A stretch of DNA of 64,000 nucleotides from Escherichia coli (GCF_046105845.1 NZ_CP151004.1), one strand, 5' to 3'. Shown: positions 34,716-46,855, counted from the stretch's first letter. Notes: generated from the letters alone by a model not told the origin. A program made the numbers and translations.

Positions 34716-35210
34716 GTGAAGATTGATGCATCCCGTCGGGGCATACTCACTGGTCGCTGGCGCAAAGCCAGTAACGGTATCCGTCCGCCCTGGTCCGGTG
34801 ATGAATCTCATTTTCTGACCCATTGCACCCGCTGCGACGCCTGTATTAATGCTTGTGAAAACAACATTCTGCAACGCGGCGCGGGCGGCTATCCGAGCGT
34901 TAACTTCAAAAATAACGAGTGCAGCTTCTGTTACGCCTGCGCGCAGGCTTGCCCCGAATCGCTATTTTCTCCGCGCCACACCAGGGCCTGGGATTTGCAG
35001 TTCACCATTGGGGACGCGTGCCTGGCGTATCAGTCAGTTGAATGCCGCCGCTGTCAGGATAGCTGTGAGCCAATGGCAATTATCTTTCGCCCGACGCTCT
35101 CCGGGATCTACCAGCCGCAACTTAATAGCCAACTTTGCAACGGATGTGGAGCATGTGCAGCCAGCTGTCCGGTATCAGCCATAACTGCGGAGTATCTCCA
35201 TGCACACTAA
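34716..35210 (+). CDS. napF: Ferredoxin-type protein NapF, 164 aa
   Basis: GTG start; four Cys-cluster motifs; first gene of the nap operon. Confidence 0.93.
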   Translation: MKIDASRRGILTGRWRKASNGIRPPWSGDESHFLTHCTRCDACINACENNILQRGAGGYPSVNFKNNECSFCYACAQACPESLFSPRHTRAWDLQFTIGDACLAYQSVECRRCQDSCEPMAIIFRPTLSGIYQPQLNSQLCNGCGACAASCPVSAITAEYLHAH

Positions 35211-35463
35211 CTGGCAAGTTTGCAGCCTGGTCGTGCAGGCCAAAAGCGAACGAATTTCAGACATCAGCACCCAACTGAACGCCTTTCCCGGCTGTGAAGT
35301 TGCTGTCAGCGACGCGCCGAGCGGTCAGTTGATTGTGGTGGTGGAAGCAGAAGACAGCGAAACGCTGATCCAAACCATTGAGTCAGTACGCAACGTAGAG
35401 GGCGTGCTGGCGGTGTCGCTGGTTTATCACCAGCAGGAAGAGCAAGGTGAGGAAACACCATGA
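35200..35463 (+). CDS. napD: NapA chaperone NapD, 87 aa
   Basis: Small ORF overlapping napF by 11 nt and napA by 4 nt. Confidence 0.92.
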
Positions 35464-37946
35464 AACTCAGTCGTCGTAGCTTTATGAAAGCTAACGCCGT
35501 TGCGGCCGCTGCGGCGGCTGCCGGTCTCAGCGTGCCGGGCGTTGCCCGCGCCGTTGTTGGTCAGCAGGAAGCCATTAAATGGGATAAAGCGCCGTGCCGT
35601 TTCTGCGGTACTGGTTGCGGCGTTCTGGTCGGAACGCAGCAGGGGCGTGTGGTGGCCTGTCAGGGCGACCCGGACGCACCGGTTAACCGTGGTCTGAACT
35701 GCATTAAGGGCTATTTCCTGCCCAAGATCATGTACGGTAAAGACCGTTTGACGCAGCCGCTGCTGCGTATGAAAAACGGTAAATATGACAAAGAAGGCGA
35801 ATTTACCCCAATCACCTGGGATCAGGCCTTCGATGTGATGGAAGAGAAATTCAAAACCGCCCTGAAAGAAAAAGGGCCGGAATCGATCGGTATGTTCGGT
35901 TCTGGTCAGTGGACTATCTGGGAAGGTTATGCCGCGTCCAAGCTGTTTAAAGCGGGCTTCCGTTCGAACAACATCGACCCGAACGCGCGTCACTGTATGG
36001 CGTCGGCAGTAGTTGGCTTTATGCGTACCTTTGGTATGGATGAGCCGATGGGCTGCTATGACGACATCGAGCAGGCTGACGCGTTTGTGCTGTGGGGCGC
36101 AAACATGGCGGAGATGCACCCGATCCTCTGGTCGCGCATCACTAACCGTCGTCTCTCTAACCAGAACGTTACCGTGGCGGTGCTTTCTACCTACCAGCAT
36201 CGTAGCTTCGAGCTGGCAGATAACGGCATCATCTTTACGCCGCAATCTGACCTGGTGATCCTGAACTATATCGCCAACTATATCATTCAAAACAATGCGA
36301 TAAATCAGGACTTCTTCAGCAAACACGTTAACCTGCGCAAAGGGGCGACGGACATCGGCTACGGTTTACGTCCGACCCATCCGCTGGAAAAAGCAGCGAA
36401 GAATCCAGGTTCTGACGCCTCCGAACCGATGAGCTTTGAAGATTACAAAGCCTTCGTTGCCGAGTATACGCTGGAAAAAACCGCCGAAATGACTGGCGTA
36501 CCAAAAGATCAGCTGGAACAACTGGCGCAGCTGTATGCCGATCCGAACAAGAAAGTCATCTCCTACTGGACGATGGGCTTCAACCAGCATACTCGTGGCG
36601 TGTGGGCCAACAACCTGGTCTACAACCTGCACCTGCTGACCGGCAAAATTTCCCAGCCGGGTTGCGGTCCGTTCTCCCTGACCGGGCAGCCTTCCGCGTG
36701 TGGTACTGCGCGTGAAGTGGGCACCTTTGCTCACCGTCTGCCTGCGGACATGGTGGTGACTAACGAGAAACATCGTGATATCTGCGAGAAGAAGTGGAAT
36801 ATCCCGAGCGGCACCATTCCGGCAAAAATCGGTCTGCATGCGGTAGCACAAGACCGTGCACTGAAAGACGGCAAGCTGAATGTTTACTGGACCATGTGTA
36901 CCAACAACATGCAGGCCGGGCCGAACATCAATGAAGAGCGTATGCCGGGCTGGCGCGATCCGCGCAATTTCATCATCGTCTCCGATCCGTATCCGACAGT
37001 CAGTGCGCTGGCAGCGGACTTGATCCTGCCGACCGCAATGTGGGTAGAAAAAGAGGGCGCTTACGGTAACGCCGAACGCCGTACTCAGTTCTGGCGTCAG
37101 CAGGTACAGGCACCGGGCGAAGCGAAATCGGATCTCTGGCAGTTAGTCCAGTTCTCCCGCCGCTTCAAAACTGAAGAAGTATGGCCGGAAGAGCTGCTGG
37201 CGAAGAAACCGGAACTGCGTGGCAAAACGCTGTACGAAGTTCTGTATGCCACCCCGGAAGTGAGCAAATACCCTGTATCCGAACTGGCGGAAGATCAGCT
37301 GAACGATGAATCCCGCGAGCTGGGCTTCTATCTGCAAAAAGGGCTGTTCGAAGAGTACGCATGGTTTGGTCGCGGTCACGGTCACGATCTGGCACCGTTC
37401 GATGACTACCACAAAGCGCGCGGTCTGCGCTGGCCGGTGGTGAACGGTAAAGAAACACAGTGGCGTTACAGCGAAGGTAACGACCCGTACGTGAAAGCGG
37501 GCGAAGGCTATAAGTTCTACGGTAAACCGGATGGCAAAGCGGTGATCTTCGCACTGCCGTTCGAACCGGCGGCGGAAGCACCGGATGAAGAGTACGACCT
37601 GTGGCTCTCTACCGGACGCGTCCTGGAGCACTGGCACACCGGCAGTATGACTCGCCGTGTGCCGGAACTGCACCGCGCCTTCCCGGAAGCGGTCCTGTTT
37701 ATTCACCCGCTGGATGCGAAAGCGCGCGATCTGCGCCGTGGCGACAAAGTGAAAGTGGTTTCTCGCCGTGGCGAAGTGATCTCGATTGTCGAAACGCGCG
37801 GTCGTAACCGTCCGCCGCAGGGCCTGGTGTACATGCCGTTCTTCGACGCCGCACAGCTGGTTAACAAACTGACGCTGGATGCGACCGATCCGCTCTCGAA
37901 AGAGACGGACTTCAAGAAGTGCGCGGTCAAACTGGAGAAGGTGTAA
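35460..37946 (+). CDS. napA: Periplasmic nitrate reductase catalytic subunit NapA, 828 aa
   Basis: Tat signal SRRSFMK; [4Fe-4S] motif [10 protein letters not shown]; molybdopterin oxidoreductase. Confidence 0.96.
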
Positions 37947-45252: not shown

Positions 45253-45806
45253 AGCGCAAAGTATTGTTAATTCCGTTGATTATCTTCCTGGCGATTGCCG
45301 CGGCGCTGCTGTGGCAGCTGGCGCGTAATGCCGAAGGGGATGATCCGACCAATCTGGAATCGGCGCTCATTGGCAAGCCAGTGCCGAAGTTTCGCCTCGA
45401 ATCACTGGACAATCCGGGGCAGTTTTATCAGGCGGATGTGCTGACTCAGGGCAAACCAGTGCTGCTTAACGTCTGGGCGACCTGGTGTCCGACCTGCCGT
45501 GCGGAACATCAATATCTGAATCAGCTTTCTGCGCAGGGCATCCGCGTGGTCGGCATGAACTATAAAGACGATCGCCAGAAGGCAATCAGCTGGCTGAAAG
45601 AGCTGGGCAATCCTTACGCGCTAAGCCTGTTTGATGGCGACGGCATGTTAGGGCTGGATCTCGGTGTCTATGGCGCGCCAGAAACGTTCCTTATTGACGG
45701 CAACGGCATCATTCGCTATCGCCATGCGGGCGATCTCAATCCTCGCGTCTGGGAAGAAGAGATCAAGCCGCTGTGGGAGAAATACGGTAAGGAGGCCGCA
45801 CAATGA
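45249..45806 (+). CDS. ccmG: Thiol:disulfide interchange protein CcmG/DsbE, 185 aa
   Basis: Thioredoxin motif WATWCPTCRAE. Confidence 0.95.
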   Translation: MKRKVLLIPLIIFLAIAAALLWQLARNAEGDDPTNLESALIGKPVPKFRLESLDNPGQFYQADVLTQGKPVLLNVWATWCPTCRAEHQYLNQLSAQGIRVVGMNYKDDRQKAISWLKELGNPYALSLFDGDGMLGLDLGVYGAPETFLIDGNGIIRYRHAGDLNPRVWEEEIKPLWEKYGKEAAQ

Positions 45807-46855
45807 GGTTTTTATTGGGCGTGCTGATGCTGATGATCTCCGGCTCAGCGCTGGCGACCATCGACGTGTTGCAGTTTAAGGATGAAGCGCAGGAGCAGCA
45901 GTTCCGCCAACTCACTGAAGAACTACGCTGCCCGAAATGCCAGAACAACAGCATTGCCGATTCCAACTCGATGATTGCCACCGACCTGCGCCAGAAAGTG
46001 TATGAACTGATGCAGGAAGGTAAAAGTAAGAAAGAGATTGTCGATTATATGGTGGCGCGTTACGGCAACTTCGTCACTTACGATCCGCCGTTAACGCCGC
46101 TGACCGTGCTGCTGTGGGTGCTTCCGGTAGTGGCTATTGGCATTGGCGGTTGGGTCATTTACGCCCGTTCGCGGCGTCGGGTACGCGTGGTGCCGGACGC
46201 GTTTCCTGAACAAAGCGTGCCGGAAGGTAAGCGTGCCGGATATATTGTTTATCTGCCGGGTATTGTGGTGGCGTTAATTGTGGCTGGCGTCAGCTACTAC
46301 CAGACGGGCAATTATCAGCAGGTGAAAATCTGGCAGCAGGCCACGGCACAGGCTCCGGCGTTACTGGACAGGGTGCTGGATCCGAAAGCCGATCCGCTCA
46401 ACGAAGAAGAGATGTCGCGCCTGGCGCTGGGGATGCGTACTCAACTGCAAAAAAATCCGGGAGATATAGAAGGCTGGATTATGTTGGGCCGCGTTGGCAT
46501 GGCGCTGGGTAACGCCAGTATTGCCACCGATGCATACGCTACTGCATATCGCCTCGATCCGAAGAACAGTGATGCGGCGCTCGGATACGCTGAAGCGTTG
46601 ACACGTTCATCTGATCCCAACGACAACCGCCTCGGTGGTGAACTGCTACGCCAGTTGGTGAGAACTGACCACAGCAATATCCGTGTGTTAAGCATGTATG
46701 CGTTTAATGCCTTTGAGCAGCAGCGATTTGGCGAAGCCGTTGCCGCGTGGGAGATGATGTTGAAACTCTTACCTGCCAACGATACTCGCCGTGCGGTGAT
46801 TGAACGTAGTATCGCGCAGGCGATGCAACATTTGTCGCCGCAGGAGAGTAAATAA
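45803..46855 (+). CDS. ccmH: Cytochrome c maturation protein CcmH (CcmH/CcmI fusion), 350 aa
   Basis: LRCPKCQ motif; C-terminal TPR-like region. Confidence 0.93.
   Translation: MRFLLGVLMLMISGSALATIDVLQFKDEAQEQQFRQLTEELRCPKCQNNSIADSNSMIATDLRQKVYELMQEGKSKKEIVDYMVARYGNFVTYDPPLTPLTVLLWVLPVVAIGIGGWVIYARSRRRVRVVPDAFPEQSVPEGKRAGYIVYLPGIVVALIVAGVSYYQTGNYQQVKIWQQATAQAPALLDRVLDPKADPLNEEEMSRLALGMRTQLQKNPGDIEGWIMLGRVGMALGNASIATDAYATAYRLDPKNSDAALGYAEALTRSSDPNDNRLGGELLRQLVRTDHSNIRVLSMYAFNAFEQQRFGEAVAAWEMMLKLLPANDTRRAVIERSIAQAMQHLSPQESK

Follow-up and report, generated by a model that had tools for sequence, protein, structure and literature searches.

Start and stop codon overlaps along the napFDAGHBC-ccmABCDEFGH operon of Escherichia coli, and probable translational coupling at its ATGA junctions

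There are few distances between neighboring genes as common as -4, in which the start codon of one gene and the stop codon of the one before it share the sequence ATGA. Irrespective of function, it is the most frequent co-directional distance both within E. coli and over 1,695 species (Huber et al. 2023). Native E. coli pairs of this kind have been tested (hyfHI, astDB, ydbH/ynbE, menDH, and bioBF; Huber et al. 2019 and 2023), and in four of five the downstream gene is translated by termination-reinitiation; bioBF is uncoupled and menDH shows only about 60% coupling (PMC6728339). Termination-reinitiation drops steeply with intergenic distance (PMC10666635). The E. coli K-12 operon considered here (b2208-b2194) contains 15 genes, lies between eco/yojO and narP, and is given by EcoCyc as a single transcription unit, napFDAGHBCccmABCDEFGH, that spans all of them (quoted in Huber et al. 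Table S3).

The window, a stretch of 64,000 nucleotides of E. coli DNA, carries this known operon, for nitrate reductase and cytochrome c maturation, at 34716-46855 on the + strand. The region is 98.9% identical in DNA to the best complete E. coli genome, with matching annotation, and gene coordinates agree with those that PGAP assigns in the closest genome. Open reading frames and transferred annotation place 15 of 15 genes in the order napFDAGHBC-ccmABCDEFGH on one strand, flanked on the chromosome, per annotation, by eco/yojO and narP, as in K-12, from which the window differs only at strain level and at none of the junctions. NCBIfam profiles recognize 14 of the 15 products above their curated cut-offs, 12 of them through equivalog models, while CcmC and CcmF match models at subfamily level (TIGR01191 and TIGR00353). 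CcmH, as a CcmH-CcmI fusion, predictably matches only at its N-terminal domain, of the NrfF/CcmH type, and scores below the NrfF cut-off. At least 80% of the region is present in 5,417 of 5,426 E. coli genomes. The features are as follows.

34716-35210, + strand: napF, 164 aa, opening the operon with a GTG start (PGAP transfer at 100% identity; TIGR00402, 248 bits)
35200-35463, + strand: napD, 87 aa, overlapping napF by 11 nt at 35200-35210 (NF007840 NapD, aligned 1-87 of 87)
35460-37946, + strand: napA, 828 aa, ATGA overlap with napD at 35460-35463 (NF010055 NapA, 1653 bits)
37953-38648, + strand: napG, 231 aa, 6 nt after napA (NF007012 NapG)
38635-39498, + strand: napH, 287 aa, overlapping napG by 14 nt at 38635-38648 (NF007013 NapH)
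39495-39944, + strand: napB, 149 aa, ATGA overlap with napH at 39495-39498 (NF008609, aligned 1-149 of 149)
39954-40556, + strand: napC, 200 aa, 9 nt after napB (NF007906, aligned 1-200 of 200)
40569-41192, + strand: ccmA, 207 aa, GTG start, 12 nt after napC (NF010061 CcmA)
41189-41851, + strand: ccmB, 220 aa, ATGA overlap with ccmA at 41189-41192 (TIGR01190 ccmB)
41852-41892, + strand: ccmB-ccmC spacer, 41 nt, the sole real break in the chain (read from the sequence)
41893-42630, + strand: ccmC, 245 aa (TIGR01191 ccmC)
42627-42836, + strand: ccmD, 69 aa, ATGA overlap with ccmC at 42627-42630 (TIGR03141)
42833-43312, + strand: ccmE, 159 aa, ATGA overlap with ccmD at 42833-42836 (NF009635, aligned 1-158)
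43309-45252, + strand: ccmF, 647 aa, ATGA overlap with ccmE at 43309-43312 (TIGR00353)
45249-45806, + strand: ccmG/dsbE, 185 aa, ATGA overlap with ccmF at 45249-45252 (NF011941, aligned 1-185 of 185)
45803-46855, + strand: ccmH, 350 aa, CcmH-CcmI fusion, ATGA overlap with ccmG at 45803-45806 (N-terminal NrfF/CcmH-like domain)
46861-46885, both strands: hairpin terminator after ccmH, common to the convergent narP (11-bp stem with 7 G-C pairs, then a T run)

Of the terminator-like sites on the + strand between 34300 and 47300, the hairpin heads the list, with the longest stem and the most G-C pairs. A simple scan of the + strand within the operon found no well-formed terminator hairpin and no consensus promoter. 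Tanapongpipat and colleagues are said to have described, in 1998, a promoter of ccmA internal to napC.

Read directly from the sequence, the 14 junctions from napF to ccmH have distances of -11, -4, +6, -14, -4, +9, +12, -4, +41, -4, -4, -4, -4, and -4. Genes overlap at ten of them, and at eight the overlap is ATGA. All ten overlaps named by the initial annotation are present, with the lengths and sequences it claimed, but the chain does not begin at 35200, as it had it: that is the start of napD, and the chain begins with napF, at 34716. At the other four, short gaps separate the genes (napA/G, +6; napB/C, +9; napC/ccmA, +12; ccmB/C, +41). Huber et al. 2023 print the same 14 distances for K-12 (Supplementary Table S2); the overlaps have been published before, and they are a common, conserved bacterial layout.

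How unusual is their frequency? Parts 1 and 20 of Huber et al. Table S2 supply a sample of 128 further co-directional E. coli pairs, of which 24% overlap and 8.6% lie at -4, and among the 66 that are closely spaced (at most 50 nt apart) the figures are 47% and 17%. Compared with these 66, the overlap rate of the nap-ccm operon, 10/14, is not clearly higher (binomial p = 0.06), but ATGA, at 8/14, is about 3-fold more frequent (p ~7e-4; Fisher 0.003). Elsewhere in the window 6 of 24 same-strand pairs overlap and 3 of 24 lie at -4, with a Fisher p of about 0.008 against the operon in each comparison.

Overlaps of a few nucleotides are only as good as the start codons that define them. Annotated starts are predictions, and if the true ones lay further downstream, the overlaps would be artefacts. 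There are indeed in-frame alternatives close by: an ATG at 39474 upstream of napB, a possible TTG at 41869 upstream of ccmC that differs from the annotated start, and, in ccmA, an ATG as the third codon. At nine of the ten overlaps, however, the annotated start is the earliest candidate after an in-frame stop, and the exception, napB, would gain from its upstream ATG an overlap of 25 nt. The starts of ccmB and ccmF read ATGATG, and use of the second ATG would still leave an overlap of 1 nt with ccmA and ccmE, respectively. Downstream candidates lack a Shine-Dalgarno motif, and starting at them would strip NapA and NapG of their Tat motifs, NapB and CcmH of their signal peptides, or CcmE and CcmG of their membrane anchors. 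For napA, with an in-frame stop at 35448, a later start is impossible because the twin-arginine motif SRRSFMK begins at residue 4. Family profiles align from residue 1, and the positions of the starts agree with those in Salmonella. It is scarcely credible, then, that the overlaps are artefacts; so far as sequence can tell, the overlapping starts are robust as annotated.

Every one of the ten overlapping starts is preceded by a Shine-Dalgarno motif that lies within the upstream gene, at a spacing of 3-8 nt and with a dG of -5.8 to -11.9 kcal/mol. Those of napD (GGAG, spacer 6; an in-frame stop at 35182 leaves no earlier start), napH (GGAGGG, dG -9.8, spacer 5), ccmE (AGGAGG, dG -10.3), ccmG (GGAGG, dG -9.5), and ccmH (AAGGAGG, dG -11.9, the strongest in the operon) may serve as examples. 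The strong internal motifs of ccmE, ccmG, ccmH, and napH could permit independent initiation. At the head of the operon the GTG of napF is the earliest possible start, 15 nt after an in-frame stop (dG -6.2). At two of the short gaps the motif straddles the stop codon of the gene before, AAGGTG before napG that of napA and AAGAGG before napC that of napB. The weakest motifs belong to the genes that follow the largest gaps: ccmA has a weak one (dG -3.3) and ccmC none (dG -2.8), nor is there a significant RNA fold in the ccmB-ccmC spacer (z -0.46). GTG starts were attributed to three genes of the window, napF, ccmA, and bcr. All three do have GTG but are not the only ones, since PGAP transfer gives six among the 50 complete genes, the others being a yfaS-like alpha-2-macroglobulin gene, yfaQ, and yejG, besides one TTG, in rcsC.

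Then there is the evidence from other genomes. Across 1,695 species the median distance is -4 or -1 for ccmA/B, C/D, D/E, E/F, F/G, CcmH/I, and napD/A; it is -4 for ccmA/B (n=464), ccmD/E, NapD@NapA, and CcmF@COG0526, -1 for ccmC/D (quartiles -4 to 5) and ccmE/F, and +11 for NapB@NapC (Huber et al. 2023). Salmonella enterica has the gene order of E. coli at 79% DNA identity and nine of the ten overlaps with lengths unchanged (-11, as in K-12, -4, -14, then six at -4). Its napD/napA junction is identical at 33 of 34 nucleotides. The tenth overlap, napH/napB, has been lost through an insertion of about 115 nt at the 3' end of napH, which leaves the genes at +115, both of them intact and annotated. 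The Salmonella ccmB, ccmD, and ccmE have GTGA where E. coli has ATGA, switches that retain NTGA, and Shine-Dalgarno cores are kept while adjacent bases diverge, as with the AGGAGG of ccmE.

Farther afield, a Klebsiella plasmid has overlaps at 7 of 8 ccm junctions, and napEDABC-ccmABCDEFGHI of Cupriavidus necator H16 pHG1, in which ccm directly follows nap, has them at 8 of 8. There ccmA/B, C/D, D/E, E/F, and F/G overlap by 4 nt, as in E. coli, and ccmG/H by 8 nt (-8). The distance between ccmB and ccmC, +41 in K-12, +51 in Salmonella, and +33 in the Klebsiella plasmid, is -4 in C. necator, so that its ccm chain is unbroken. Both of these carry ccmH and ccmI as distinct genes joined by an ATGA overlap, as do Psychrobacter and Dinoroseobacter. 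The ccm overlaps recur in alpha-, beta-, and gammaproteobacteria, whereas the nap junctions are less conserved. The nap part of pHG1 lacks napF, napG, and napH and has a 20-nt napD/napA overlap with gaps of +21 to +75 at napE/D, napA/B, napB/C, and napC/ccmA; in Alloyangia napD/A is +9 and napH/B +37; and napG/napH is -14 in Salmonella, -4 in Alloyangia, and 0 in Sulfuricurvum.

Do such overlaps need to be selected at all? An alternative view is that they are neutral by-products of genome compaction. Wherever the second codon of a gene begins with A, the start reads ATGA and holds a TGA in the +1 frame, and an upstream gene in that frame that has lost its stop would run on into it. That -4 is the commonest distance for genes of any function fits this idea, as does an overall overlap rate not significantly higher than that of other closely spaced pairs. 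Furthermore, 7 of the 10 overlaps join genes that are not classed as partners in a complex, and Salmonella has lost the napH/napB overlap with both genes still intact and annotated. Compaction does not lead one to expect that ccm junctions should overlap alike in three classes of proteobacteria, that Shine-Dalgarno cores and NTGA should be retained in Salmonella amid diverging bases and ATG/GTG switching, or that ATGA in particular should be enriched about 3-fold, and the ATGA configuration has been demonstrated to couple translation in other pairs. It is quite unlikely that neutrality accounts for the chain.

I propose instead that the operon is transcribed as one 12-kb mRNA of 15 genes, with its end at the hairpin that follows ccmH, and that, quite probably, termination-reinitiation operates at its ATGA junctions. 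Coupling at junctions whose layout, sound starts, Shine-Dalgarno motifs, and conservation in other proteobacteria are plain to see is likely by analogy with the tested E. coli pairs, which are likewise co-directional, with a 4-nt ATGA overlap and, in most cases, a Shine-Dalgarno motif lying within the first gene of the pair. They differ in being single pairs, none from nap or ccm, whereas this operon strings together up to five successive ATGA junctions, from ccmC to ccmH. I found no published coupling test of any nap or ccm junction in the literature.

At the eight ATGA junctions a terminating ribosome would halt on UGA while already covering the next AUG, and the ribosome or its small subunit would likely restart on the spot, aided by the Shine-Dalgarno motif 3-8 nt upstream; it is this combination of stop/start overlap and nearby motif that makes on-site restart likely. 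Without translation of the gene before it, the downstream gene would then go largely untranslated. To reach the start codon across an overlap of 11 or 14 nt, the ribosome would have to move back a short way, and these two overlaps fall outside the predictive range of Huber et al., -8 to +10, while the eight junctions at -4 count as short overlaps. At +6, +9, and +12, where the Shine-Dalgarno motif lies across or beside the stop codon, reinitiation is probably mixed with fresh initiation, and ccmC, 41 nt after ccmB and with no such motif, would require independent initiation.

A different benefit might be sought in continuous ribosome cover of a long and weakly expressed 12-kb mRNA. Without gaps, Rho-dependent polarity and nuclease attack would be prevented and the distal ccm genes would still be expressed. 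Untranslated stretches did strongly destabilize E. coli test transcripts (PMC6728339, PMC10666635), the 15-gene operon has a single gap above 12 nt and no well-formed internal terminator hairpin, and overlaps link neighbors as unrelated in function as napH/napB and ccmD/ccmE. Gaps of 6-12 nt should protect equally well, however, which leaves the preference for exactly -4 unexplained. That cover, rather than subunit ratios, is the main benefit seems very unlikely, and in any case the idea is compatible with coupling and no alternative to it.

Coupling would make output co-vary and leave the mRNA without untranslated gaps; it would not in itself fix subunit ratios. The initial annotation had taken the chain to imply tight translational coupling, which is reasonable, and fixed stoichiometry, which as a general reading is not supported: of the 10 overlaps, only 3 join subunits of one complex. 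Huber et al., who classified the pairs manually, place napG/H, ccmA/B, and ccmC/D in this group, and they also class as complex pairs napB/C (+9) and ccmB/C (+41), which do not overlap. Conversely, overlaps occur between partners that are not stoichiometric (ccmD/E, ccmE/F, and napH/B, for example), and the Salmonella insertion that abolishes napH/napB also speaks against the claim. It fits locally: in the cryo-EM assemblies Ccm(AB)2CD and Ccm(ABCD)2, CcmA:CcmB and CcmC:CcmD are both 1:1, while the ratio of B to C is disputed.

The breaks in the chain may be other than random. It is conceivable, though unlikely, that translation modules are assembly modules and that the ccmB/ccmC junction is a node set or regulated independently. 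The modules may be napF-D-A (cytoplasmic maturation of NapA), napG-H(-B), napC, ccmA-B (the ABC core), and ccmC to ccmH. In Pseudomonas aeruginosa, translation of ccmC is the target of a translational activator. If this idea is true, then the uncoupled ccmB/ccmC junction would fix the ratio of CcmAB to CcmCD, the very one disputed between the two structures.

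The 15 co-directional genes at 34716-46855 (+) are the E. coli napFDAGHBC-ccmABCDEFGH operon. An 11.7-kb stretch shares 98.9% identity with one complete E. coli chromosome, and 5,417 of the 5,426 complete genomes of the species contain 80% or more of it. In the PGAP annotation of the best-matching genome, eco/yojO and narP flank the array. All 15 reading frames are intact in the window, as judged by annotation transfer, and 14 of the products exceed the curated NCBIfam cut-off, often with an alignment that begins at residue 1. The N-terminal third of CcmH matches an NrfF/CcmH-type domain, E. 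coli CcmH being a CcmH-CcmI fusion. Compared with the best E. coli genome, the operon is a mosaic, with identities of 100% (napF, napD, and ccmD), 97.7% (ccmB), 97.5% (ccmF), and 96.7% (ccmE), which suggests patches of recombination within 34716-46855.

The + strand of the array contains no well-formed internal terminator hairpin. What looks like a bidirectional terminator lies between the convergent genes ccmH and narP:

46861-46885, hairpin with an 11-bp G+C-rich stem and T runs on both sides

A promoter scan returned no + strand site within the operon; the sites it did return were not above those in shuffled sequence, and the scan is uninformative for FNR/NarP-dependent promoters. An internal promoter is reported for ccmA; a literature search on it was uninformative.

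The distances at the 14 junctions were taken straight from the sequence of the window.

Junction distances (nt; negative, overlap; positive, gap)
napF/napD: -11
napD/napA: -4, ATGA
napA/napG: +6
napG/napH: -14
napH/napB: -4, ATGA
napB/napC: +9
napC/ccmA: +12
ccmA/ccmB: -4, ATGA
ccmB/ccmC: +41
ccmC/ccmD, ccmD/ccmE, ccmE/ccmF, ccmF/ccmG, ccmG/ccmH: -4 each, ATGA

Every overlap listed in the initial annotation is correct, and in all 10 of the 14 junctions overlap, 8 of them as ATGA. The chain begins earlier than the 35200 given there, with napF at 34716, and the three GTG starts it counted in the window are too few. By transferred PGAP annotation there are six (the alpha-2-macroglobulin/yfaS-like gene, yfaQ, napF, ccmA, bcr, and yejG), and rcsC has a TTG start. 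These seven start codons lie at 4556, 9071, 18992, 34716, 40569, 57078, and 58601.

Revised start codons could do away with the overlaps, as the initial annotation recognized. Checked gene by gene, the overlaps stand. Nine of the ten genes that overlap their upstream neighbour start at the first ATG, GTG, or TTG past an in-frame stop located 3-39 nt before it; only napB departs from this, and its sole upstream alternative (ATG at 39474) would make the overlap longer. All ten starts have a Shine-Dalgarno motif 3-8 nt to the 5' side (dG -5.8 to -11.9 kcal/mol against the 3' end of 16S rRNA), and later in-frame candidates have no comparable motif. Later starts would also cost NapA and NapG their twin-arginine motifs, NapB and CcmH their signal peptides, or CcmE and CcmG their membrane anchors. 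The starts of ccmB and ccmF read ATGATG, and use of the second ATG would still leave an overlap of 1 nt. Finally, start positions in Salmonella are identical to those of E. coli, despite an overall DNA identity of 79%. Because these checks hold, it is very unlikely that the overlaps are artefacts of mis-annotated starts.

Elsewhere in the window, ompC (26005-27132) is only 89% identical to the copy in the closest genome, far below its neighbours, and yejO (47857-50448) is an intact autotransporter reading frame of 863 aa; in K-12 it is an interrupted pseudogene. Rfam identifies four RNA features, MicF with 116.8 bits and the others with matches above the gathering score:

25578-25671 (-), MicF RNA, upstream of ompC on the opposite strand
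21841-21917 (+), naRNA4, REP-derived nucleoid-associated RNA, directly after rcsC
50553-50626 (-), tRNA, annotated as tRNA-Pro
54342-54367 (-), L25 ribosomal-protein leader, upstream of rplY

The literature already covers the operon, the order of its genes, and the precise distances at its junctions: Huber et al. 2023 (PMC10666635, Table S2) give K-12 pairs NGHB#2140-2153 just these 14 values. It also contains the general finding that overlaps of 4 nt couple translation and are overrepresented among the subunits of complexes. How widely the layout is conserved was judged from seven annotated loci and from Table S4 of the same work, where median distances are given for syntenic COG pairs from 1,695 species.

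Median distances in the part of Table S4 used here (nt)
CcmA@CcmB: -4, quartiles -4 to 1, n=464
CcmC@CcmD: -1, quartiles -4 to 5, n=238
CcmD@CcmE: -4, quartiles -4 to -1, n=231
CcmE@CcmF: -1, quartiles -4 to 23.6, n=507
CcmF@thioredoxin-like (CcmG): -4, quartiles -4 to 5, n=380
CcmH@CcmI: -4, quartiles -4 to -1, n=362
NapD@NapA-type: -4, quartiles -4 to 17, n=147
NapB@NapC: +11, quartiles 7 to 21, n=135

CcmB@CcmC is absent from the pairs with medians up to +21 in that part of the table. By these medians, the E. coli operon follows a widely conserved pattern in its gaps as well as in its overlaps.

The individual loci vary more at nap junctions than at ccm junctions. The Salmonella enterica operon reads -11, -4, +6, -14, +115, +9, +20, -4, +51, -4, -4, -4, -4, -4, and a Klebsiella plasmid with ccm only reads -4, +33, -4, -4, -4, -1, -4, -4. 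The eight ccm junctions of Cupriavidus necator pHG1 (napEDABC-ccmABCDEFGHI) are all overlaps, of 4 nt in seven cases and 8 nt in one, and napD/napA is at -20. Plasmids of Psychrobacter and Dinoroseobacter have ccmF/ccmG at +6 and +8, with ccmG/ccmH and ccmH/ccmI both at -4. Alloyangia has napF/D at -4, D/A at +9, A/G at +44, G/H at -4, H/B at +37, and B/C at +26, and the distances in Sulfuricurvum are mostly 0 to +4. Where E. coli has the fused ccmH (45803-46855), separate ccmH and ccmI genes are joined by ATGA in the Klebsiella plasmid, C. necator, Psychrobacter, and Dinoroseobacter (comparison loci L004, 11507-12837, and L005, 11548-13280), an arrangement one small frame change away from fusion.

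The alignment of Salmonella with E. coli retains the Shine-Dalgarno cores (GGAGG, AAGGA) and TGA while adjoining bases have diverged. At ccmB, ccmD, and ccmE (11682, 13127, and 13336 of the Salmonella locus, L008) GTGA replaces ATGA, and neither the 4 nt of overlap nor the Shine-Dalgarno core is lost. That these elements persist despite divergence argues for selection on the layout of the junctions, not mere inertia. One might suppose instead that ATGA is a neutral trap into which genes fall through loss of a stop codon. This would account for -4 being common everywhere, yet it leaves unexplained the conservation of Shine-Dalgarno motif plus NTGA across proteobacterial classes, and I consider it improbable. 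The exception in Salmonella is napH/napB, where an insertion of about 115 nt at the 3' end of napH (L008 9850-9985) opens a gap of 115 nt and alters the last nine or so residues of NapH. About 20 nt are duplicated in the insertion, and napB therefore retains both its Shine-Dalgarno motif and its ATG. The insertion, a possible ERIC-type repeat, folds no better than shuffled sequence (z -1.5) and has no further copy among the sequences compared.

Is the chain unusual for E. coli? Distances from -8 to +6 account for 707 of the 2,987 co-directional pairs in that organism, and no single distance is as common as -4 (PMC10666635). The background used here consists of 128 pairs from two parts of Table S2, nap-ccm excluded, with the window itself as a second comparison.

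Overlap frequencies, nap-ccm and pairs from two parts of Table S2
All sampled pairs: n=128, overlapping 24%, exactly -4 8.6%
Closely spaced pairs (50 nt or less): n=66, overlapping 47%, exactly -4 17%
nap-ccm: n=14, overlapping 71% (10/14), exactly -4 57% (8/14)

Against the closely spaced pairs sampled, the overlap count does not clearly stand out (binomial p = 0.06), and ATGA is enriched about 3-fold (p ~7e-4; Fisher 0.003). The remaining same-strand pairs in the window overlap in 6 of 24 cases, 3 of them at -4. The dcw (cell-wall) cluster has a similar density of overlaps in Table S2 (PMC10666635). The nap-ccm chain is dense, not exceptional.

The chain is real, conserved, and known in detail. 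With stop and start codons overlapping and Shine-Dalgarno motifs inside the upstream genes, the overlaps probably function in translational coupling, as first proposed. Literature searches gave indirect matches only on coupling in ccm, and nothing usable on ribosome profiling of the nap or ccm genes under anaerobic conditions. At ATGA junctions a terminating ribosome would restart at the adjacent AUG; termination-reinitiation collapses when the stop codon is shifted upstream by 14-38 nt (PMC10666635). Coupling is less certain at -11 and -14, because the ribosome would need a short backward movement; both fall outside the predictive range of -8 to +10 (PMC10666635). The +6, +9, and +12 junctions, with a Shine-Dalgarno motif on or beside the stop codon, resemble a class at +9 to +12 that is specific to E. 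coli and that Huber et al. attribute mostly to independent initiation on a shared transcript (PMC10666635). The weakest motifs, those of ccmA (dG -3.3, GTG start) and ccmC (dG -2.8), follow the two longest gaps:

40557-40568, napC-ccmA spacer
41852-41892, ccmB-ccmC spacer, 41 nt, U-rich

The latter spacer folds into no structure above shuffled controls (z -0.46). Given the 41-nt gap, with neither a Shine-Dalgarno motif nor significant local structure, ccmC would have to be initiated independently of ccmB. It is also plausible that the chain shields a long mRNA against polarity and decay, which is compatible with coupling, yet gives no reason for exactly -4.

Coupling was first taken to imply fixed stoichiometry. 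Locally this is sound: the two published assemblies, Ccm(AB)2CD and Ccm(ABCD)2, each contain CcmA:CcmB and CcmC:CcmD at 1:1 (PMC10457321), and NapG/NapH is classed as a complex. For the chain as a whole it fails, because complex pairs occupy only 3 of the 10 overlapping junctions as classed by Huber et al. (PMC10666635), the complex pairs ccmB/C and napB/C do not overlap, some overlaps join proteins of no fixed ratio (the chaperone CcmE and its neighbours, NapH and NapB), and Salmonella, a sister genus, has lost the overlap at napH/napB. Coupling would make outputs co-vary, with ratios set by the efficiency of reinitiation and by fresh initiation at strong internal Shine-Dalgarno motifs. It is speculative, and only mildly new, that the chain is interrupted at the borders between modules; equally speculative is that the uncoupled ccmB-ccmC junction falls exactly where the CcmAB:CcmCD ratio is disputed. 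Translation of ccmC is separately regulated in Pseudomonas aeruginosa (PMC12818456), and in Shewanella the position of ccmB in the operon is argued to guard against toxic excess of CcmB (PMC11868835). Altering junctions in the ccm helper plasmids used for c-type cytochromes would likely shift relative expression, which matters especially in view of the reported toxicity of excess CcmB in Shewanella (PMC11868835). The useful outcome is a corrected interpretation: overlap does not mean fixed stoichiometry.
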